Shown here: one piece after another, positions 8,329-32,000 of the stretch
Layout: each line of letters opens with the position of its first letter
Numbering within the stretch: position 1 is the first letter of the stretch
NCBI RefSeq assembly: GCF_020969955.1
Contig: NZ_JAHDSX010000002.1
Coordinates: 30,001 to 62,000 of the forward strand
Reading direction: 5' to 3'
Source of the DNA: Allobaculum fili
Lineage (GTDB): Bacteria; Bacillota_I; Bacilli_A; Erysipelotrichales; Erysipelotrichaceae
DNA: 32,000 nucleotides
Position numbers and translations under genes: made by a program
Notes under the pieces: model-generated
The model's input: only the letters and a program-made list of their open reading frames with translations
Told to the model about the DNA's origin: nothing
Database searches by the model: none

Positions 8329-8832
8329 ATGCGATCCGTTTCGCGGCTTTCCTCTACGCTTTCTGAAACCGCTCTGGCAGTTCTGCTCGTTTTGGGCGTG
8401 CCTTTGCTGAGCGCCTGCGGTTCGTCCAGACGGACCGTCAGCTGTACGCAGACCAACGAGAACGGAAGTCTTTCTCTTCGTATGAGCGCACCTTCCGAAC
8501 AGAGCCAGGTCGAACTTCTGGAAATTACCATGAAGTATCCGCACGATTTCGATCAGCAGCTGACCGGCTATCGGGTCCCTTTGCAGGAAGGGGACAGCGA
8601 CGGCTCCAAAACAAAAAGCGCGCTGATTGCGGATGCCCTTGCGCAGACGCTTGGCATTCAGGCCGATCTGGTCAAAGTGAAGCGAGAAGATGATGGCTAT
8701 ATCGCCAGCGCGACAATTCAGAACATCCCCGCTCTGTTTGCCTCCCTTGGTCTGAGCGCAGACGGACTCGATCTCGACGAAATTGAAGCCGCCCTCGAAC
8801 AGGATGCGCAGTTTGCCTGTCTGCCCGAGTAG
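8329..8832 (+). CDS. Small secreted lipoprotein, paralog family 1 of 3 (DUF1307/YehR-like size and layout)
   Basis: Signal peptide plus lipobox 'LLSAC'. A Cys lies ~8 aa after the lipid Cys ('VSCTQ') and another is 4 residues from the C-terminus ('QFACLPE'). Confidence 0.75.
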   Translation: MRSVSRLSSTLSETALAVLLVLGVPLLSACGSSRRTVSCTQTNENGSLSLRMSAPSEQSQVELLEITMKYPHDFDQQLTGYRVPLQEGDSDGSKTKSALIADALAQTLGIQADLVKVKREDDGYIASATIQNIPALFASLGLSADGLDLDEIEAALEQDAQFACLPE

Positions 8833-8897
8833 GATCGCCAGATCGGCAAAAGAAAAGCGGTGTTTAAACCATCGAAAACAGATGTACAGACCGATTT

Positions 8898-8928
8898 ACG
8901 GGAAGGAGCAGCGGCTCTTTCCCGTTTT
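8898..8928 (+). terminator. Rho-independent terminator after the first lipoprotein gene
   Basis: ACGGGAAGGAGC / GCTCTTTCCCGT 12-bp stem (one G-U), loop agcg, followed by TTTT. Confidence 0.75.
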
Positions 8929-9034
8929 CCGCTTTACGCCCGACTGGCTTTCCAGAAAAGAATCCTTTCTTTTTCGCACCGAGCGTAGCAGCACGAATCG
9001 TCCGTTCGGGGTGGAGAAAAAGGGCGTGGATATA

Positions 9035-10672
9035 ATGGAGATGCCTATGAAAAATGAAAAAACAACCGCGGGAACGGCAGATTTGTCCTCCGCCGCTTCC
9101 CATTCAGAACAAAGGACACCCGTTCTTTCGGGTCTGGCGTACAAGATTTTGAATCACGCCCATCTCGATGAAAAAGAGCGGGACGAAATTCTTCATCCCT
9201 CCCCGCTTCGTCCCGTCTGCACGGCTAAATGCATGCAGGACTTTGTAAAGCGTATGGAAGAGGCGAGAGAAAAGGGCCAGAAAGTGCTGATCGCGGGCGA
9301 TTACGACTGCGACGGCATTATGTCGACGATTATTTTGTATCAGGGCCTGAAACGGTATGGCCTGGAAACGATGTACTACATTCCCGACCGCTTAAAAGAA
9401 GGATACGGCTTAAGTGAGCAGACCGTTGAAAAGGCAGCAAAAGCCAGCTATGACTTGATCATCACGGTCGATAACGGCGTATCGGCTGGTTCCGCGCTGG
9501 AACAAGCCAGAGAACTTGGCGTGGATGTGATCGTTACCGATCATCATCTGTACGAAGATGAACCGGACTGCACGCTGCTCGTTCACCCGATGAAAATGGG
9601 CGAAGACTTTGATGTATTGTGCGGTGCTGGCGTCGCCTTTGAATGCGTACGGGCGTTAGGCATAGAGGAAGAAAAATTTCTGATCTATGCGGCGGTCGCT
9701 TCGATTGCCGACTGCATGCCTGTCTTTAAGGAAACCCGATCGATTATTCAGGAAGGTCTCAAGGCGCTCAACGCCCATCACGAACCGCATTTTGATCCGT
9801 TCATTCGCTCCTATCCAGTGTGTGAAACGGATATTTCCTTTCAGGTTGCTCCTTGCATCAACGCCCTGGGCCGTCTGAGCGACCGGGCCAAAGTGAATAC
9901 GTTTGTCCGCTACATGGAAAGCACGAATCCGATCGAAATTCAGAAATACGCTGCGCGTGTAATGGAAATCAACGAAGCGCGCAAAGAAATGACGTATCAG
10001 GTGCAAAGCCAGGCGCTTGCGGAAATTAATCCGCTTTCCGCCATTCTCTTTGCGATTTCCCCGAATTTCCATGAAGGCATTATCGGTCTGGCGGCCGGCC
10101 GGCTGAGCTCCCAGTTCGATAAGCCGGCGATTGTCGGAACCTTAAACGGCGATGTAGCCAAATTCAGCATGCGCGCTCCCGAAGGCTATCACTGCCTGGA
10201 ATTCCTGCAGAAATACGATGGCTTTCTTGCCCTTGGCGGTCACGCACAGGCAGCGGGATTCGCCCTGCCGGCGGGTAAAGTCGAGGATTTTCGAAGCTTT
10301 CTGATCAAAAACGCCTCCAAAATGGTGCGGACCAAAATGCCGGCTGAACCGATGGAAATCGAAGTGTCGGACATCACCGTTGAAAACATGGATTCTCTGC
10401 AGGCGATTCGTCCGTTTGGAACCGGCTTTAAAATGCCCGCATTTGAAATCGATCAGCCGCTGATTCTTAAAAGCTTCGACTTTTCGCAAGGCCGTCATCG
10501 CCGCTTTTATCTCGATGGCGGCATCAACGCGATTCATTTCAACCAGACCTCTACGGATAAGCTGGCCAAACAGGAAGGCATTGAAAAGCTGATCGGCTCG
10601 ATTTCCATCTCGACCTGGAACGGTACGCGAAAAGCCGAGTTCATGATCGACGAAATCGTCTACGAAATCTGA
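9035..10672 (+). CDS. recJ: Single-stranded-DNA-specific exonuclease RecJ (DHH/DHHA1)
   Basis: DHH motifs 'IAGDYDCDG', 'ITVDNG' and 'VTDHH', plus DHHA1 'GGHAQAAGF'. The start is uncertain among ATG 9035, 9041 and 9047. The ORF-track start at 8783 overlaps the upstream gene and terminator. Confidence 0.85.
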   Translation: MEMPMKNEKTTAGTADLSSAASHSEQRTPVLSGLAYKILNHAHLDEKERDEILHPSPLRPVCTAKCMQDFVKRMEEAREKGQKVLIAGDYDCDGIMSTIILYQGLKRYGLETMYYIPDRLKEGYGLSEQTVEKAAKASYDLIITVDNGVSAGSALEQARELGVDVIVTDHHLYEDEPDCTLLVHPMKMGEDFDVLCGAGVAFECVRALGIEEEKFLIYAAVASIADCMPVFKETRSIIQEGLKALNAHHEPHFDPFIRSYPVCETDISFQVAPCINALGRLSDRAKVNTFVRYMESTNPIEIQKYAARVMEINEARKEMTYQVQSQALAEINPLSAILFAISPNFHEGIIGLAAGRLSSQFDKPAIVGTLNGDVAKFSMRAPEGYHCLEFLQKYDGFLALGGHAQAAGFALPAGKVEDFRSFLIKNASKMVRTKMPAEPMEIEVSDITVENMDSLQAIRPFGTGFKMPAFEIDQPLILKSFDFSQGRHRRFYLDGGINAIHFNQTSTDKLAKQEGIEKLIGSISISTWNGTRKAEFMIDEIVYEI

Positions 10673-10897
10673 TCGGAAAAAAGTCGTTTTCTGCAGGAAA
10701 GCGTGTCGGTTTAAAGCGGCATATGTGCAAATTTGTGCAGAGATCTCGCAGCTGCAGAGCGCACTCGAAAAAAATACCGGTACAATCAGACTGTACAGAA
10801 GCTCAGAAATTCGGTACGCTTGATGTTCTGTTCCTCTTGGATGGAACAGTGTGAAAAAAGAAGAAGTGCTGCAAAGCAGCCAGGAGAAAATACAACT

Positions 10898-11805: not shown

Positions 11806-14019
11806 ATGGCGACTAAACACAGCGTCACGATTGAAGAATGTATGGAACATATTCAGACCTACATTCATCGCAAAGAAAATCTTGAGCTGATCGAAAAAGC
11901 CTGGAAATTCGCAGATCATGCCCACGAGGGACAGAAGCGAAGATCGGGCGAACCGTATACGGTTCACGTCATTCAGGTCGCCGACATTCTGGCTGGACTG
12001 CACTGTTCGCCCAAAACCATTGCCGCCGGTCTGCTCCATGACACGCTTGAAGACTGCGATGATGTTACGTACGAAATTCTGGAACAGGAATTTTCTACGG
12101 AAATCGCCGATCTGGTCGAAGCCGTCACCAAAATTGGAAAGATCAAAAAGGAATTCAAGGACGAAAAGGAATACCAGGCCAGCAATCACCGCAAAATCTT
12201 TATCGCGATGGCCAAGGACGTCCGCGTCATTCTGATCAAACTGGCTGACCGTCTTCATAACATGCGCACACTGGAATACCAGTCCGAATCCGCGCAGAAG
12301 CGCATCGCCCGCGAAACGCTCCAGGTGTACGCGCCGATCGCCCATCGTCTTGGTATTTCGCAGGTAAAAAACGAACTCGAAGATCTGAGCTTCAAGTATC
12401 TCGATCCAAGAGAATACCAGAACATCAAGCAGCTCGTCGCCAACCGCGAAAGCGAACGTAACGAGCAGGTTACCGAGATGATCAACGACATCAAGACCAT
12501 TCTCGACAATTACCATATTCCATACCGTATTTTCGGCCGCTCCAAGCACTTCTACTCCATCCATAAAAAGATGGTCACCAAGCACAAACGCTTCGAAGAA
12601 ATTCTCGACTTGCAGGCGATTCGAATCATTACCGATTCCATCGCGCACTGCTACGAAATTCTCGGCTACATTCACGCCACCTATACGCCAATCCCTGGCC
12701 GCTTCAAGGACTACATCGCGATGCCAAAAAGCAACCTGTATCAGTCCCTGCACACAACGGTCATCTCCTCGGCATCCGGCAGCACGTTTGAAATCCAGAT
12801 CCGTACCGAAGAGATGGATTCCGTTGCCGAAAAAGGTGTCGCCGCCCACTGGCTGTACAAGGAAAACAAGTCTGGCATGGACGAGGGGATGCAGACGAGG
12901 GAAATGGAAGACAAGCTTTCCTGGTTCCGCGATTTCTCCATCATCACCGACGAAGACAGTGAAGATCCGCTCGAATACATGAACACGGTGCAGAAGGACA
13001 TTTTCGAAGCCAACGTCTACTGCTTCACCCCGCGCGGCAAAGTCATCTCGCTGCCCAGCGGGGCGACGCCCATTGACTTTGCCTATCGCATTCATACCGA
13101 AGTCGGCAACCATACTGTCGGCGCACAGGTCAACGGCGGCATCGTTCCGCTCAATACTCCCCTCAAAACCGGCGATGTGGTTTCGATCATGACCAACAAA
13201 GCGTCGGCCGGCCCTTCGCCCGACTGGATCAAGATCGTCAAGAGCGCCCACGCCCGAAACAAGATCCGTGCTTTTTTCCAGAAACAGGCGCAGAAAGACA
13301 AGCGCGAAGATGTTCGCAAAGGACAGGAAATGTTAATGGACGACATGAAAAAGGCCGGACTCGATCCGTCCATCGTCCGTACATCCAAGAAAATCGACTC
13401 GATTTTGCAGAGCCTTTCCTTTAAAACGAGCGACGACCTGTACGCGGGCATTGCCGCCAAACGCATTCCGACTGCGGTCGTCATTGAACGTCTGAACACG
13501 ACTAAGGCGGCCGTCGATGACAACGAAGAAATCATCAAGCTGTTCTCGAAAAACGAGAAAAAGGAAAAAGTGTCCGACTGCGGCATCGTCGTACCGGGCA
13601 TCGACACGATCAAAGTGTCCCTTTCGCCCTGCTGCTCGCCGATCCCCGGCGATGAAGTCGTCGGCTACATCACCAAGGGTCATGGCGTCAAAGTTCACTG
13701 CAGGGACTGCCCGAACATTGCCAAGGAGTCAAAGCGTCTGATTCCTGTCGCCTGGGGCGATAATCTCGAAGACAAAACGTATCCGGTTCACCTGCAGATC
13801 GAATCCAATGATCGCAATTATCTGCTTTCGGATCTCGTTACGGTTTTCCAGCAAAACGGCATTTCCATACGGGCCATCAATTCAACCGTCAATAGCGATT
13901 CGCTGACCGCGACGACCAAAATTGAAATCATGGTGCGGAATTCCGAATCTCTTGAACGTCTGATCGCCAATCTGCGCAAGGTTCGCTCCGTCCTTTCGGT
14001 CACCCGTGTCATCCTGTAA
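11806..14019 (+). CDS. relA: Bifunctional (p)ppGpp synthetase/hydrolase (RelA/SpoT homolog, long RSH)
   Basis: 737 aa with an HD hydrolase domain ('HDTLED'), a synthetase domain ('RFKDYIAMPKSNLYQSLHT'), and TGS and ACT-like C-terminal domains. RBS is AGGAGG. Confidence 0.95.
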   Translation: MATKHSVTIEECMEHIQTYIHRKENLELIEKAWKFADHAHEGQKRRSGEPYTVHVIQVADILAGLHCSPKTIAAGLLHDTLEDCDDVTYEILEQEFSTEIADLVEAVTKIGKIKKEFKDEKEYQASNHRKIFIAMAKDVRVILIKLADRLHNMRTLEYQSESAQKRIARETLQVYAPIAHRLGISQVKNELEDLSFKYLDPREYQNIKQLVANRESERNEQVTEMINDIKTILDNYHIPYRIFGRSKHFYSIHKKMVTKHKRFEEILDLQAIRIITDSIAHCYEILGYIHATYTPIPGRFKDYIAMPKSNLYQSLHTTVISSASGSTFEIQIRTEEMDSVAEKGVAAHWLYKENKSGMDEGMQTREMEDKLSWFRDFSIITDEDSEDPLEYMNTVQKDIFEANVYCFTPRGKVISLPSGATPIDFAYRIHTEVGNHTVGAQVNGGIVPLNTPLKTGDVVSIMTNKASAGPSPDWIKIVKSAHARNKIRAFFQKQAQKDKREDVRKGQEMLMDDMKKAGLDPSIVRTSKKIDSILQSLSFKTSDDLYAGIAAKRIPTAVVIERLNTTKAAVDDNEEIIKLFSKNEKKEKVSDCGIVVPGIDTIKVSLSPCCSPIPGDEVVGYITKGHGVKVHCRDCPNIAKESKRLIPVAWGDNLEDKTYPVHLQIESNDRNYLLSDLVTVFQQNGISIRAINSTVNSDSLTATTKIEIMVRNSESLERLIANLRKVRSVLSVTRVIL

Positions 14020-16079: not shown

Positions 16080-16108
16080 TATAATTTGCAGATAGGGTCC
16101 TATCTGCA
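16080..16108 (+). promoter_or_regulatory. TATAAT -10 box followed by a 10+2+10 inverted repeat (candidate operator)
   Basis: TATAAT at 16080-16085. TGCAGATAGG (16087-16096), gt, CCTATCTGCA (16099-16108) form perfect arms 44 nt upstream of the ImmA-like gene start. Confidence 0.5.
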
Positions 16109-16151
16109 TTTTGTTTCTCGTTCAAGAATTAAAGAGAAAGAGGGTGTTAAT

Positions 16152-18089
16152 GTGAAAACCATGGATGACTTCAAAGCTTATCTGTTGAAAGTATATAAAG
16201 GAAAAATCGAGGAGCGGATTTCTGAAGATTTGACAGATTTGTTTAATCAGATTTGTGAGTTCAAGAATAATTGGTGCAAACAACCAGTCATTAAGTCTGA
16301 TTTCACTCTGCTTGAATGCGAGCTAGAATTTTCTTCAATGTCGAAAATTATCGCACATCTCCTGGTCGATGTTCATTTCGCTTGTTATGAAGTGACAATG
16401 GATAATGATGGAAATGCCGACTGGGATGTCTACGCTGCTGACCAACACACTGGAGCCTATCTTAAGCTCGAGGCGGATATCAAAGACGATCTCACCTGGT
16501 TTCAAATCTGCGATTCTTCACTGATCATTTCTGAAGATCCTTTTGAATACTTCAAAGCAAGACTTCCGGAAAATGGCCTGTTCTACTCAGACAAACTTCT
16601 CCCCCAAATTACATCTCACGACCTTAACGCTGTCGCATGTAGATTCCTGGAGGACTGCTATTATTCCAACCCTGAATGTGAACGTGGCAAAGAAATCGAC
16701 CTCATGAAGTTGGCGGAAAATATGAGGCTGACCGTTAAACTGATCAGTACCCTGTGCCGTCATGAAATTGACGGACAAATCTTCTTCAGTGATGGAACAT
16801 ACACCGATTACAATATGTGGACCGATACTTGCTCACAGGAAAACGCTACTCCTGGAACTGTGGTGGTTTATACGGGCCACTCTAGCAATCGGCACAACAA
16901 CACATTAGTTCATGAGTGCTTGCACTGGTATTTGCATCGAGCATCATTCTATTTGCAGAGACTATTAGGACATGAGCTGCCGAGCATAACTTGTCGAAAA
17001 AGCACAATGCAAGGCTATGAACACGGTGATTACTGTCAAATTCGCGAGTGGCAATCCAATAAGATTTCCCCACTCGTGCTGGTTCCATCCAGTGATAACT
17101 TACTGGAGTTAGCCCATGCTGAATTTGAAAAGGTGATTCAATCAGATCCCGGGTGTTTTCAACTAGATGCGGCAGACTCTGTAATCCGATCATTGGCAAA
17201 AAAATATAACGTATCTCCTCAGCTTTTTGCGATCCGCCTCAAAGAAGAAGGGGCAAAAAACTTAGACGGCTTTTATCGGTGTCCAAACAAAAAGTCTGTT
17301 GGCTTATCTTCCTATTGCGATCCATACCTTCTTCGTGATTGGGAACTGCGATTTGGTCAAACCTATGACATTTCTTTAGAAGAGTTTGAACAGTGGCTAG
17401 AAGAGAATCCTACAATGAAAGAAGCCCACGATCTCAACATCATTAAGCATATTGACGGTCACGTGTGCCTAGTGAAACCAAATTTATGTTCGCCGGTCAG
17501 TCCATCAAATTTATCTGAGTATGCCCGAATGCATATGGATGAATTCTGCCTTGTTTTTAACGAAAACAAATCTCGAAATTCTTATGGAGACAATTCATCC
17601 ATCCAAAACCCGAATCGTGCTGTTCCTGTTGATACTTTTAAAAAGGTGAAACAGATCATTCTGACAAACCCAACCAACCAGGAAGCAATGCAGTGGATCA
17701 AGAAACAAAGTGACGATATTCGCAATACACTGCGGACACTTGTTCAAGAGTTGAGCGCCGATACCAAAACTCTAAAAAAGTGGTCTGGATATACTACTGA
17801 AGCCATAGCCTATCAGGGTCATATAAGCGAAAGTGCGTTCAAAAATATCCTTTCTAGCAAAACCGAGGAGCCAAAACTCGAGACGCTCATCTGCCTTTGT
17901 TTTGGTATGAAATTGCCATACAAGCTTTCACTTGCTCTTTTGGAAGCCGGTGGAAAACACCTCAATAATTCTGAAACGCAATCTTGCTACGATGAGATAT
18001 TGCAGAACTATACATATGATTCACTCGAAGTCGCCAACGCATATCTAGCCTGGTGCGATATAAAACCTCTAGGAAATCCGTTGGATTAG
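16152..18089 (+). CDS. Large ImmA/IrrE-type zinc metalloprotease fused to a C-terminal XRE-like HTH, with an unknown ~190-aa N-terminal domain
   Basis: 'HECLH' HExxH at 16911-16925, with a downstream 'EWQSNKISPLVLVP' that matches the ImmA 'E..AN.FA..LL.P' pattern. The C-terminus 'ISESAFKNILS....PKLETLICLCFGMKLPYKLSLALLEAGG' is XRE-HTH-like. A GTG start at 16152 with a GAGGG RBS is preferred over the TTG at 16086. Confidence 0.6.
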   Translation: MKTMDDFKAYLLKVYKGKIEERISEDLTDLFNQICEFKNNWCKQPVIKSDFTLLECELEFSSMSKIIAHLLVDVHFACYEVTMDNDGNADWDVYAADQHTGAYLKLEADIKDDLTWFQICDSSLIISEDPFEYFKARLPENGLFYSDKLLPQITSHDLNAVACRFLEDCYYSNPECERGKEIDLMKLAENMRLTVKLISTLCRHEIDGQIFFSDGTYTDYNMWTDTCSQENATPGTVVVYTGHSSNRHNNTLVHECLHWYLHRASFYLQRLLGHELPSITCRKSTMQGYEHGDYCQIREWQSNKISPLVLVPSSDNLLELAHAEFEKVIQSDPGCFQLDAADSVIRSLAKKYNVSPQLFAIRLKEEGAKNLDGFYRCPNKKSVGLSSYCDPYLLRDWELRFGQTYDISLEEFEQWLEENPTMKEAHDLNIIKHIDGHVCLVKPNLCSPVSPSNLSEYARMHMDEFCLVFNENKSRNSYGDNSSIQNPNRAVPVDTFKKVKQIILTNPTNQEAMQWIKKQSDDIRNTLRTLVQELSADTKTLKKWSGYTTEAIAYQGHISESAFKNILSSKTEEPKLETLICLCFGMKLPYKLSLALLEAGGKHLNNSETQSCYDEILQNYTYDSLEVANAYLAWCDIKPLGNPLD

Positions 18090-25636: not shown

Positions 25637-25939
25637 ATGCCTGGCTACAGAGTAAGAAAACGTGATGACAAGTACGAGGTTCTCTATCCCAGCGGGAAGG
25701 TTCGCTGCCGTGTGGATGATGGCGAGCTTGCCTATGAGATCGCTAATGATCTCATGAGAGAGCGATCTCAGGAGCCCACACCCGTGAGGTGCGTGGAGTC
25801 CGGAGAGATCTTCAAAGACCACTACGAAGCGGCCAGAGAGTATGGCGGTAATCCTAACGGGATCAAGCGTTGCTGCCTTGGAATCATCTCCCGTTCGTGT
25901 GGTCTTCATTGGGAGTTTGCCGATGCCCTTGAAGCCTAA
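25637..25939 (+). CDS. Small phage protein with a homing-endonuclease-associated (NUMOD-like) DNA-binding motif
   Basis: ATG 25637 follows GGAGGTG. 'VRCVESGEIFKDHYEAAREYGGNPNGIKRCCLG..RSCGLHWEF' resembles the 'V.C.eTGe.F.S..eAa...g.....I..cc.g....agG.hW.y' motif of phage endonuclease DNA-binding modules. Confidence 0.4.
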   Translation: MPGYRVRKRDDKYEVLYPSGKVRCRVDDGELAYEIANDLMRERSQEPTPVRCVESGEIFKDHYEAAREYGGNPNGIKRCCLGIISRSCGLHWEFADALEA

Positions 25940-26276
25940 ACACCCATGCGGCTGGCCAGGCTGTCCCAACCTCACCGACAAAGCCTATTGCCCTGAACAC
26001 ACCAAAGCAGCCAACAGACGCTACGAAAAGTACAGACGTGATCCCGGAACAAGATCCCGTTATGGAAAAGCCTGGCAGGTTGCTCGTAAGAAATACAAAG
26101 CGAAGCATCCGCTCTGTGAGATGTGTCTGGCTGATGGCAAAGCCGTGCCCATGGAGCAGGTTCATCACATTGTTCCGCTCTCACAGGGTGGAACCCATGA
26201 CGAAAGTAACCTTATGAGCTTATGCAAAAGCTGCCACTCCAGGATTCATGCAAAAGAAAAAGGACATTGGAGGTAA
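25923..26276 (+). CDS. HNH endonuclease (terminase-associated type)
   Basis: 'CEMC...HHIVPLSQGGTHDESNLMSLCKSCHSRIH'. ATG 25923 follows GGGAG. The gene is positioned directly upstream of terS, as in HK97-like cos phages. Confidence 0.85.
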   Translation: MPLKPKHPCGWPGCPNLTDKAYCPEHTKAANRRYEKYRRDPGTRSRYGKAWQVARKKYKAKHPLCEMCLADGKAVPMEQVHHIVPLSQGGTHDESNLMSLCKSCHSRIHAKEKGHWR

Positions 26277-26450: not shown

Positions 26451-26618
26451 ATGAAGCAATACAAATTTGAAATCATGAGGTCAGGCAATCTTGTCTCATC
26501 ACTTACTGAAATGGAGAGTTTTGTTAACAAATATGCAAAAAAGGGATGGGATTTGAAGTCTATTCAGCATTTCCCAGATATGTCGACGTACCTCTTCATA
26601 TTCACCAAAACAGTTTAA
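26451..26618 (+). CDS. 55-aa DUF4177-like protein (not in the ORF track)
   Basis: A strong AAAGGAGGGTG RBS sits 5 nt before the ATG. The protein is MKQYKFEIMRSGNLVSSLTEMESFVNKYAKKGWDLKSIQHFPDMSTYLFIFTKTV. The 'YK..........e....n.ya.kGWdL.s' pattern is typical of DUF4177. Confidence 0.55.
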   Translation: MKQYKFEIMRSGNLVSSLTEMESFVNKYAKKGWDLKSIQHFPDMSTYLFIFTKTV

Positions 26619-26641
26619 GGAGCTTTGAAAGGAGGTCCGAA

Positions 26642-27172
26642 ATGGCAAAAGACGGTACTAGACGAGGCGGAGCAAGACCTGGAGCAGGTCGAAAAAAGAA
26701 GTCCGCAATTGAAAAAATGGATGCTGGAGAGGCCATTTCTTTGATCTTACCAGAACCGGTAGACCTGATTGGGACGGATTGTCCTCCGGTCAAGGAATAC
26801 CTGAAAGCCAATCAGAAATGCGGCATTGACCTGTCCGCAGCCGATGTGTTTGAGGATACATGGAAGTGGCTGGCTGCCAGAGGGTGCGAAAAGCTGGTCT
26901 CTCAAAATCTGATCGAGCAGTACGCAATGTCCGTTGCTCGATATATTCAGTGCGAGACCGCTATTTCTGACTACGGATTTCTGGCTAAACACCCTACAAG
27001 TGGAAATCCAATGCAGTCTCCCTATGTGGCGATGAGCCAGAACTACATGAAGCAGGCCAACCAGATCTGGTATCAGATCTTCCAGGTGGTAAAGGAAAAC
27101 TGCACCGAGTCCTGGAGCGGAAACACACCGCAGGATAACGTGATGGAGCTGTTGCTCCGGAAAAAAGGATAG
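26642..27172 (+). CDS. terS: Terminase small subunit, P27 family
   Basis: ATG 26642 follows GGAGGT. The N-terminus is basic ('GGARPGAGRKKKS'). 'LIEQYAMSVARYIQCETAISDYGFL...SPYVAMSQNYMKQANQIW' is P27-type. Confidence 0.8.
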   Translation: MAKDGTRRGGARPGAGRKKKSAIEKMDAGEAISLILPEPVDLIGTDCPPVKEYLKANQKCGIDLSAADVFEDTWKWLAARGCEKLVSQNLIEQYAMSVARYIQCETAISDYGFLAKHPTSGNPMQSPYVAMSQNYMKQANQIWYQIFQVVKENCTESWSGNTPQDNVMELLLRKKG

Positions 27173-30576: not shown

Positions 30577-30596
30577 AAAGGCCTGCGGGCCTTTTT
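30577..30596 (+). terminator. Short intrinsic terminator 17 nt upstream of the terL start
   Basis: AAAGGCC tgcg GGCCTTT plus TTTTT, then the GGAGG RBS of terL. Confidence 0.5.
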
Positions 30597-30613
30597 AGAT
30601 TGGAGGTTTCCTT

Positions 30614-32000
30614 ATGGCAATGCGAAAGCTGAAAAAATACAAACCTACAAAGTTCAAGGCTCGCACATCTTATTACGATAAGGAAGCAGCCGACTATGCG
30701 GTTAACTTTATCCAGTGCCTGTGCCACACCAAAGGAACCTGGGCTGGTAAACCCTTTGAGCTGATCGACTGGCAGGAACAGATCGTGAGGGATCTGTTTG
30801 GAATCAAAAAAAAGAACGGTTATCGTCAGTTCAATACAGCCTATATTGAGATAGGAAAAAAGATGGGCAAACAAGTTGCGTTAAATACATTAATTCCTAC
30901 TCCAAAAGGCTTTACCACGATGGGGGAGATCAAGGTTGGCGATACCGTATTCGATGAAACCGGATCTCCGTGTCACGTAGTGGCCAAGAGTCAGGTCGAT
31001 TTTGACGAGCAGGCCTATCGTATTGTGTTCAAAGATGGAGAGGTCATCGAAGCTGGTGAGAACCATCAGTGGATTGGAGAGAAGCATCAAAAACCGATAA
31101 TGATGACAACCGGTGACTTGTACAGGTATTTCCAAACCAAATCCTACAATTTTCGGATTGCTGTCAATGGAGCGCTGGAAGCCCCTGAAGCGGAGCTGCC
31201 GATCGATCCATACCTGATGGGGTATTGGCTTGGTAACGGACATGCCACCAAGCCAGAAATTACTGTAAAGACTTCCGATGTTCCGGAAGTCCTTTTTAAT
31301 GTCCAGCAGAACACTGTAGTCAACAACGCCTGGTTGAATGTTGGCGACTCACTAATTTTCAAAATCAACGAGCTGAAGCCAGTCCTGCTCAAGTCATTCC
31401 ATGACAAAGTGATTCCGATTGAATATCTTCGTGCCTCTAAAGAACAACGGCTCCGCCTTTTGCAGGGATTGATGGACTCTGATGGATGTATCTCAGGAGT
31501 AAAAGGACAAGGAGTTTACTACTCCACAGAAAAGAGGTTAGCGGAAACAGTTAGTGAACTCCTGTGGACGCTGGGAATCAAAAATGCGATCACCTCAACT
31601 CCATCTACGCAACCGGCTAATAGGGATATGCCAAGCCAGGAATGTGGCAGAGTTGCTACCGGTGAAACCTGCTATATGATCAAATTCACCTGCTTTGACG
31701 ATGTGAAAGTTGCTGGTCTATCCAGAAAACTAAAGAATCGGATTCCCAGAAATCCAACGACCAGATCCCATTTTCGATATATCGACTCGATTGAGAAAAT
31801 CGAGAACCGAGGAATGCAATGCATCCAGGTGGATAGCCCGTCCCATCAATACTTGATTGGCAAAAGCTGTCTTCCAACGCACAACTCAGAGCTTGCAGCG
31901 GCCATTGCATTGCTCCTCACCTGCGGAGATGGAGAGCAGCGAGCTGAAGTGTACGGCTGCGCTTCGGATCGTCAGCAGGCATCCATTGTTTTTGATGTTG
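30614..32000 (+). CDS. terL: Terminase large subunit (Terminase_1-like), intein-containing, 3'-truncated by the window edge
   Basis: An open frame runs from ATG 30614 (RBS GGAGG) to the window end, and I checked it codon by codon. It is missing from the ORF track because it has no stop. The exteins join as 'YIEIGKKMGK|SELAAAIALLLTCGDGEQRAEVYGCASDRQQASIVFDV', giving Walker A GKKMGKS and the typical TerL continuation. Confidence 0.85.
   Translation, partial: MAMRKLKKYKPTKFKARTSYYDKEAADYAVNFIQCLCHTKGTWAGKPFELIDWQEQIVRDLFGIKKKNGYRQFNTAYIEIGKKMGKQVALNTLIPTPKGFTTMGEIKVGDTVFDETGSPCHVVAKSQVDFDEQAYRIVFKDGEVIEAGENHQWIGEKHQKPIMMTTGDLYRYFQTKSYNFRIAVNGALEAPEAELPIDPYLMGYWLGNGHATKPEITVKTSDVPEVLFNVQQNTVVNNAWLNVGDSLIFKINELKPVLLKSFHDKVIPIEYLRASKEQRLRLLQGLMDSDGCISGVKGQGVYYSTEKRLAETVSELLWTLGIKNAITSTPSTQPANRDMPSQECGRVATGETCYMIKFTCFDDVKVAGLSRKLKNRIPRNPTTRSHFRYIDSIEKIENRGMQCIQVDSPSHQYLIGKSCLPTHNSELAAAIALLLTCGDGEQRAEVYGCASDRQQASIVFDV
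30872..31885 (+). mobile_element. 338-aa intein with a LAGLIDADG homing-endonuclease domain, inserted in the TerL P-loop
   Basis: Block A 'QVALNTLIPTPKGFTTMGEIKVGD', block B 'GENHQW', LAGLIDADG motifs 'YLMGYWLGNGH' and 'LLQGLMDSDGC', block F 'MQCIQVDSPSHQYLIG', and block G 'CLPTHN' followed by a +1 Ser. Confidence 0.8.

Follow-up and report, generated by a model that had tools for sequence, protein, structure and literature searches.

A class 3 intein with a LAGLIDADG endonuclease domain in the Walker A loop of a prophage large terminase of Allobaculum fili

This work deals with a window of 32,000 nucleotides of Allobaculum fili (assembly GCF_020969955.1, contig NZ_JAHDSX010000002.1, positions 30,001 to 62,000), which ends within a prophage gene for the large terminase (TerL). 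All coordinates given below are those of the window, and all features of this gene lie on its plus strand. The TerL frame is interrupted by 338 amino acids that form a class 3 intein, as established by its full signature, its homology, its predicted fold, its conservation and the existence of alleles in which the same site is empty. Considered as a whole, the element is very probably a mobile class 3 intein with a LAGLIDADG homing endonuclease, which separates the invariant lysine from the serine in the Walker A loop of a Terminase_1-type TerL. An intein in this loop had been proposed in a preliminary description made from the letters alone, and it is now backed by homology, predicted fold, conservation and empty-site alleles.

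Results

The TerL gene (5' part, 30614-32000) starts with an ATG at 30614, is preceded by a GGAGG seven bases upstream (30603-30607) and extends past the end of the window. Translation of 30614-32000 gives a single open frame, whose beginning (MAMRKLKKY) is common to many TerL homologues found by database searches. As pointed out in the preliminary description, the gene does not appear in the list of open reading frames (ORFs) of the window; the cause is trivial, because the list leaves out ORFs that, like this one, continue beyond the end of the window. The N-extein comprises 86 amino acids (30614-30871; MAMRKLKKY...NTAYIEIGKKMGK) and ends in the first part of the Walker A motif, GKKMGK, with positions 1-37 of the TerL_ATPase profile matching residues 52-89. 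It is followed in frame by the insert, which corresponds to residues 87-424 of TerL (30872-31885; Gln1 to Asn338 in intein numbering), reads QVALNTLIPTPKG at its start and KSCLPTHN at its end, and is the stretch precisely missing from intein-free alleles. The translated frame thus places the 338 residues between GKKMGK and S exactly where they had been claimed. From residue 425 on, TerL reads SELAAAIALLLTCGDGEQ; the window encodes the first 38 amino acids of this C-extein (31886-32000; SELAAAIALLL...), whose initial serine (Ser+1) completes the Walker A motif as GKKMGKS.

Removal of the insert in silico restored GKKMGKS together with a TerL_ATPase (Pfam) match that is continuous across the junction, in agreement with the idea that excision rebuilds a canonical P-loop. 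When the spliced extein was compared with the terminase profile, as the preliminary description had suggested, the score of the window extein rose from 20.6 bits (profile positions 1-37) with the insert to 38 bits across the junction without it. In the full-length homologue L002 from Allobaculum mucilyticum, in-silico splicing raised the TerL_ATPase score from 62.7 bits (profile positions 41-177) to 79.2 bits (profile positions 1-177), and the spliced protein exhibits a TerL_nuclease domain downstream of the ATPase domain (168 bits). Only after in-silico splicing is a contiguous TerL_ATPase domain with a Walker A motif of the form GxxxxGK[ST] found together with a nuclease domain. Other boundaries that would put a Cys, Ser or Thr at position 1 of the intein were considered and rejected, no such residue being present within five residues of the junction; besides, no boundaries other than the retained ones give both GKKMGKS and a codon-by-codon agreement with the empty-site alleles.

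Class 3 inteins are defined by a non-nucleophilic residue 1, a triad of Trp (B:12), Cys (F:4) and Thr (G:5), hereafter WCT, and a Ser or Thr at +1 (PMC2807308, PMC5050341). All of these features are found in the insert, along with the His at B:10 and a relatedness to established class 3 inteins. Block A (QVALNTLIPTPKG; 30872-30910) opens with the non-nucleophile Gln1 and aligns to positions 2-13 of the inteins of PDB entries 6rix and 6bs8. Block B (GEVIEAGENHQWIG; 31037-31078) contains Gly62 (B:7), His65 (B:10) and Trp67 (B:12) and aligns to their HQW. Block F (GMQCIQVDSPSHQYLI; 31811-31858) aligns to their RCVEVD and carries Cys317 (F:4; 31820-31822), the predicted class 3 nucleophile, while block G (SCLPTHN, then S; 31865-31888) aligns to their PTHN and brings Thr336 (G:5), His337, Asn338 and Ser+1. 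The triad codons could be read directly at the places initially indicated, i.e. TGG at 31070-31072, two residues after His65, TGC at 31820-31822 and ACG at 31877-31879, the latter being followed by CAC AAC (His-Asn) and TCA (Ser+1). The C-terminal end is therefore that of an intein, with His337-Asn338 followed by Ser+1.

This signature is strongly conserved. Among 60 distinct TerL inteins located at the same site, down to 47% identity, Trp67, Cys317, Thr336, His337, Asn338 and Ser+1 are present in every sequence (60/60) and His65 is kept in 59. Position 1 is a Gln in 54 of them, a Glu in four and a Leu in two, and is never a Cys, Ser or Thr. The earlier assignment to class 3, which relied on the WCT triad and on Gln1 as a non-nucleophile, is fully consistent with these invariant positions, and Gln1 is, by this count, the normal state of this TerL intein clade. 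More distant relatives were collected by an exhaustive HMMER search of a library of 1.84 billion protein cluster representatives, which yielded 15,752 representatives related to the intein, 10,148 of them at E<=1e-10. The signature was scored in 147 listed relatives, 110 of which were aligned at all nine scored positions. A non-nucleophilic residue 1 combined with WCT was found in 104 of these 110, the remainder displaying a Ser or Cys at position 1 with WCT (5/110) or WCV (1/110). Where residue 1 was aligned in the listed relatives, it was mostly Ala (70), then Leu (11), Pro (9), Gln (4) and Met (4), and the -1 residue is a Lys in most of them, which indicates P-loop sites. The nearest relatives outside the clade reside in terminases of the TerL_ATPase, T4-type and lambda gpA-type families.

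Comparison with known structures leads to the same conclusion. The best phmmer matches of the insert in the PDB are 6rix, 6riy and 6bs8 (E 2e-18 to 3e-17), which are the class 3 inteins MchDnaB1 and MsmDnaB1 (PMC7664689); the alignment to class 3 inteins proposed in the preliminary description thus proved positive, with a best E-value of 2e-18. The alignments to 6rix and 6bs8 extend over residues 2-70 (N lobe, HQW included) and 304-338 (C lobe, RCVEVDxPxHLYL...PTHN). An AlphaFold2 model of the intein, computed with 40 homologues as input, reached a mean predicted local distance difference test (pLDDT) value of 92.8 and a predicted template modelling score (pTM) of 0.90. When this model was compared with the PDB by Foldseek, PI-SceI came out on top (E 5e-18; template modelling (TM) score of 0.72-0.74 on the query), with further matches to the TliVMA and PhoVMA inteins and to PI-PfuI, and to I-DmoI for the endonuclease part. 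The class 3 mini-inteins 6bs8 and 6rix gave TM scores of 0.84-0.89 when normalised on the target. The AlphaFold2 model, Foldseek and phmmer thus all support a HINT fold made of the N- and C-terminal splicing lobes.

Alleles of the same gene with and without the insert were found in closely related sequences. We searched with an in-silico spliced TerL, in which the window extein was joined to the remainder of homologue P0077. This search retrieved intein-free TerL proteins of 533-535 amino acids (P0125, P0140 and P0160) that are 89-97% identical to the spliced query and read ...KKxGKSELAAA... at the site, as well as a protein of 880 amino acids with a full intein (P0126) and P0077 itself, with 686 amino acids and a mini-intein of 151 amino acids. 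In a genome survey covering the 79 best loci, with one genome per species, the TerL site carried a full intein (338-343 amino acids) at 32 loci and a mini-intein at four, was empty at 35 and could not be read at eight; one of the 35 empty calls (L041) is doubtful, the locus scan having matched query residues 3-230 there. Codon-level alignments of the junction display the empty site in Ileibacterium, Absicoccus, Succinimonas, Lachnospiraceae, Lacrimispora and Clostridium fessum. Moreover, blastn alignments of the window with the intein-free prophages of Ileibacterium and Absicoccus cover both flanks and skip exactly 30872-31885. The insert is thus in frame at a conserved site, with homologues that lack precisely this segment. 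Its size at this site varies widely (145-170, 225, 255-261, 283-296, 316 and 335-346 amino acids; e.g. P0013, P0019, P0028, P0049, P0057, P0099, P0114 and P0066-P0120), the smallest class being mini-inteins, and the junction residues are intact throughout. This range of 145 to 346 amino acids at a single site with invariant junctions points to many independent deletions of the endonuclease, some complete and others partial, as would be expected from the homing cycle.

The LAGLIDADG homing-endonuclease domain itself (about residues 101-295; 31172-31756) is located between the two splicing lobes and is missing in mini-intein alleles. Its presence, already claimed in the preliminary description, is supported by a Pfam LAGLIDADG_3 match to the insert (E 3e-10) and by two motifs, LMGYWLGNG (motif 1; residues 115-123; 31214-31240) and LQGLMDSDG (motif 2; residues 197-205; 31460-31486). 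Together with the Foldseek matches to I-DmoI and PI-SceI, the LAGLIDADG_3 match argues for a two-motif, pseudo-dimeric alpha/beta fold.

Selection on the intein could be estimated thanks to Allobaculum mucilyticum strain 128 (Erysipelotrichaceae, Bacillota), which harbours two intein-bearing copies of TerL, L002 and L003. The former shows 99% amino-acid identity to the window, and 92% nucleotide identity over 4.6 kb; the latter displays 93% amino-acid identity. When the window was compared with L003, the whole intein had a ratio of nonsynonymous to synonymous substitution rates (dN/dS) of 0.075, with 0.073 in the N lobe and 0.068 in the endonuclease part, at a dS of ~0.8-1.0. Values of ~0.07 imply that both the splicing and the endonuclease parts are constrained. 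The two A. mucilyticum copies are 67-91% identical to each other through most of the intein and 100% identical over ~400 nucleotides across the C-terminal splice junction (TerL nucleotides ~1171-1575), which suggests gene conversion or recombination between resident prophages.

Another local pattern was seen in Succinivibrionaceae. The intein-bearing TerL of Ruminobacter sp. RM87 (L081) was compared with four empty alleles (L048, L057, L067 and L049). The nucleotide identity of the exteins drops to 0.70-0.75 within ~50 nucleotides of the insertion site (TerL nucleotides ~181-300), versus 0.9-1.0 elsewhere, and the Ser+1 codon of L081 differs from that of the four empty alleles at all three positions. 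This dip resembles a co-conversion tract, and possibly a target that has become resistant to cleavage, but it is only suggestive, other patches of low identity occurring in the same genes. From the empty-site polymorphism, the purifying selection and this dip in extein identity, we infer that the LAGLIDADG domain may promote homing.

As for the genomic context, host genes occupy the window up to ~14 kb (serA- and serC-like genes, ruvA, ruvB, recJ, a phosphoribosyltransferase gene and relA/spoT, which ends at 14019). They are followed by phage genes for an antirepressor, a primase, a helicase, an HNH endonuclease (25842-26276, just upstream of the small terminase), the small terminase (26546-27172, ~3.4 kb from the TerL start at 30614), a ParB-methyltransferase, an amidoligase and a gamma-glutamyl cyclotransferase. 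The latter three, of which the first is a DNA methyltransferase with a ParB domain, lie between the small terminase and TerL together with two small ORFs (to 30564). Near the left end of the phage region, a 667-amino-acid ORF (16086-18089) has no Pfam match and corresponds solely to PHROG 4031, of unknown function (E 6e-55). No integrase was identified between relA/spoT and the phage genes, and scans of the window for tRNAs and Rfam families gave no matches. A GC-rich hairpin followed by Ts (aaaggcc-tgcg-ggccttttt; 30578-30597) was noticed by eye between a 104-amino-acid ORF and the ribosome-binding site of TerL; it was not called by a consensus terminator scan of the plus strand.

In L002, TerL is an intact ORF of 873 amino acids, and genes for a portal, a ClpP-type protease and an HK97-type capsid come after it. 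Directly after the TerL of L003 comes a gene (8738-10861 of that locus) that encodes not a portal but a 707-amino-acid protein with peptidoglycan-binding and Rv2525c-like glycoside-hydrolase domains, and this element may be rearranged or defective. Neither of the two Allobaculum TerL proteins had an exact counterpart in the protein collection that was searched. Exteins 80-88% identical to that of the window were found in isolates of Succinimonas and Ruminobacter (Pseudomonadota) and of Ileibacterium, Absicoccus and Clostridium fessum (Bacillota), and intein-bearing TerL proteins of Mobiluncus and Gleimia (Actinomycetota) are ~67% identical to that of the window. The arrangement with an amidoligase and a gamma-glutamyl cyclotransferase upstream of TerL and with portal, ClpP and capsid genes after it is common to the Ruminobacter locus and to the window or its homologue L002. 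By these comparisons, the host range of the packaging module is unusually wide.

Discussion

The element described here is of a common and already described kind, as the 2010 definition of the class already mentioned such inteins in the P-loops of terminases. The hosts of this class include DnaB, RecG, SNF2 and the large subunits of phage terminases, the insertion being mostly in the P-loop of an ATPase (PMC2807308). The preliminary description had regarded a Gln1 class 3 intein in a Bacillota TerL as an unusual instance. This is contradicted both by the prevalence of Gln1 (54/60) and of full inteins (32 of the 79 best loci, mostly in Bacillota) and by the class paper itself, which names phage TerL and P-loops as typical hosts (PMC2807308). 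Inteins of TerL1 were described in mycobacteriophages of clusters A1, E, J and X by Kelley et al. 2016 (mBio), with one site between the invariant Lys of Walker A and the nucleophilic Thr; that study demonstrated splicing for inteins of several other TerL sites, two of which also proved active as endonucleases (PMC5050341). In addition, a 2025 survey counted 287 inteins of class 3 in actinobacteriophages, hosted for the most part by terminases and Cas4 exonucleases. The clade found here is abundant in isolates and metagenome-assembled genomes, among them those of Bacillota (Ruminococcus, Acetobacterium, Megasphaera, Selenomonas, Acidaminococcus and a Streptococcaceae genus), of Actinomycetota (Gleimia, Mobiluncus, Coriobacteriaceae) and of Succinivibrionaceae. 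InBase has listed a class 3 intein from a terminase (TerA) of Clostridium thermocellum, on which a text search gave no result. No publication on this particular clade was retrieved by a literature search that did not cover all published lists of class 3 inteins.

The closest described counterpart is the TerL intein of cluster E phages. When the window protein was compared by tblastn with 50,697 phage records, the best full-length matches were TerL proteins of this cluster, from phages such as Cjw1, Rakim and Kanye. Kanye gp10 reads ARKNGK|ALDVETPILT...HHLW...VCIQID...TPTHN|TELLAG, and its intein is 31% identical to that of the window over the full length (E 2e-40); Table S2 of Kelley et al. 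2016 lists it as an intein of 331 amino acids with the same boundaries. This table prints no site letter, and the cluster E intein most likely corresponds to the 'TerL1-a' P-loop site of that study. The cluster E inteins (Cjw1 gp8, Rakim gp10 and Kanye gp10) and the window intein share the Pfam TerL family of their hosts, the insertion point between the Walker A Lys and Ser/Thr, a LAGLIDADG domain (331 versus 338 amino acids in total), a non-nucleophilic residue 1, HxW, the block F Cys and the terminal T-H-N. They differ at residue 1 (Ala versus Gln), at +1 (Thr versus Ser), at B:7 (Ser versus Gly) and in motif 1, which is AWLGDG with an Asp in cluster E and YWLGNG with an Asn in the window clade, and their hosts are Actinomycetota phages as opposed to a Bacillota prophage.

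Other known inteins were also compared. The mycobacterial DnaB-1 inteins (MsmDnaBi1, 6bs8; MchDnaB1, 6rix and 6riy) have WCT, a P-loop site and Ser+1 in common with the window intein, but they are mini-inteins that have lost the endonuclease, with Ala1 and an Asp at B:7, and are hosted by a replicative helicase instead of a terminase. The DnaB intein of mycobacteriophage Bethlehem, prototype of class 3, with Pro1, WCT, His B:10, Thr/Ser at +1, 341 amino acids, a homing endonuclease and a phage origin (PMC2807308), was compared through its published description and differs by its host protein. Finally, PI-SceI and the VMA inteins also consist of a HINT domain with an inserted LAGLIDADG endonuclease, but they belong to class 1, use Cys1 as nucleophile, lack WCT and are 13-15% identical to the window intein.

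By analogy with the published class 3 pathway, the window intein would splice through branched intermediates. Its endonuclease may also be active. TerL would be translated as a precursor of ~873 amino acids with a split ATPase P-loop, and we propose that the terminase ATPase would therefore be inactive at this stage, without DNA packaging. Cys317 (F:4), supported by His65 and Trp67, would attack the peptide bond between Lys86 and Gln1, giving a block F thioester branched intermediate on the intein. The N-extein would subsequently move to the side chain of Ser+1 to form a block G branched ester, and cyclisation of Asn338 with the help of His337 would release the intein. An O-to-N acyl shift would finally create a native peptide bond, resulting in a TerL of 535 amino acids with GKKMGKS. 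As for mobility, the endonuclease domain would, in co-infected cells or polylysogens, cleave TerL alleles that lack the intein, and the intein would be copied into them (homing).

Some observations weigh against this picture. No significant match to a Hint or intein-splicing model of Pfam or NCBIfam was obtained with the full intein, a natural mini-intein or an artificial mini version, these scans giving the LAGLIDADG domain and weak matches to intein-containing equivalogs and nothing else. Formally, this is the absence of a Hint-domain hit that the preliminary description had listed as adverse to an intein, but phmmer against the PDB and Foldseek place the insert among inteins. Because these sequence and fold searches are unambiguous, we consider the missing match as a limit in the sensitivity of the libraries. 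Position B:7 is also atypical, with Gly62 in place of the Asp of the crystallised class 3 DnaB inteins, class 1 inteins having a Thr. Gly is the second commonest residue at B:7 among the relatives (Asp 91, Gly 23, Ser 8; 23/133), and the position is dispensable in the prototype class 3 intein (PMC2807308). Regarding the endonuclease, a catalytic acidic residue is expected at the end of each LAGLIDADG motif; motif 2 keeps Asp204, but motif 1 has Asn122 (GNG) instead of the usual Asp, which makes the activity uncertain. Position 122 is presumably catalytic, by alignment to block C of PI-SceI. This Asn is shared by 37 of the 39 clade sequences that retain the motif, and the wider relatives have an Asp in 126 of 147 cases. 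Such an enzyme may cut with a single site, perhaps as a nickase, or may use another residue. Lastly, experimental evidence of splicing for this TerL or its immediate clade was not found in the literature.

These points have to be considered in the light of other explanations for the insert. Public records that call its relatives just 'terminase' or 'LAGLIDADG family homing endonuclease', as well as the lack of a match to the Pfam Hint model, would suit an ordinary terminase domain that is permanent and never excised. Such a domain is extremely improbable, as the insert splits the Walker A motif, is precisely absent from TerL proteins that are otherwise nearly identical, has the fold and the sequence of an intein and varies in size at one fixed site bordered by invariant residues. 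An intein that has decayed and no longer splices, the TerL copy being a dead gene in a defective prophage, is quite unlikely for different reasons. An inactive class 3-like intein is known from a pseudogene, Arth_1007 of Arthrobacter FB24 (PMC3196547). Besides, the window stops before the end of TerL, so that only the related L002 shows whether the remainder of the gene and of the prophage is intact, and in L003 TerL is followed by a lysin-like gene and not by a portal gene. However, all catalytic positions are intact here, as opposed to the WDT found instead of WCT in the Arthrobacter case (PMC2807308). The dN/dS of 0.07 across the intein and the L002 counterpart, with its complete ORF and its downstream portal, protease and capsid genes, also speak against decay, and a non-splicing insert in the essential P-loop would inactivate packaging.

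The intein could alternatively splice by a route that does not involve the block F Cys, for instance with Ser+1 attacking the N-terminal splice junction directly, in the manner of the class 2 KlbA inteins. The N-terminal nucleophile is missing here as it is in class 2 inteins, but class 2 inteins have Ala1, Cys+1 and no WCT (PMC2807308). With a complete WCT triad that is invariant in the clade, with class 3 inteins as nearest solved relatives and given the absolute requirement for the block F Cys in the prototype class 3 intein (PMC2807308), this route is very unlikely. A class 3 intein that would splice through Cys317 is thus the explanation that we retain.

More speculatively, this class 3 intein could go beyond parasitism and act as a conditional switch on DNA packaging and its endonuclease as a natural single-strand nicking homing enzyme, a hypothesis that we consider as improbable in the present state. 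The model would be the class 3 intein MsmDnaBi1, with its Cys48-Cys118 redox trap: in a gut host that is a strict anaerobe, oxidation could trap the catalytic Cys317, with Cys34 as candidate partner. Cys34 (30971-30973) is non-catalytic and invariant in the alignment of 40 clade sequences, and 77 of the 132 wider class 3 relatives also have a Cys at this position; in MsmDnaBi1 the redox partner is a different residue, Cys48, whose counterpart in the window intein is Ala48. The nickase hypothesis was prompted by an Asn-bearing endonuclease that combines strong purifying selection with a recent presence/absence polymorphism. If such a switch existed, TerL would become an active ATPase only in reducing conditions.

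To conclude, the window element leaves current knowledge of intein mechanisms and of terminases unaltered, and its main value is for annotation, the recognition of the intein giving back a normal terminase of 535 amino acids. Gene callers and public records name such genes 'terminase' or 'LAGLIDADG homing endonuclease' only, or break them into fragments, so that in many prophages from gut and rumen TerL is overlooked or given a wrong size. Besides, the clade is a source of compact class 3 mini-inteins (145-170 amino acids) from mesophilic anaerobes. It is also large, its near-identical exteins being found across three phyla with a full, partly deleted or mini intein or with an empty site, and therefore offers a convenient natural series to study the homing cycle of inteins.

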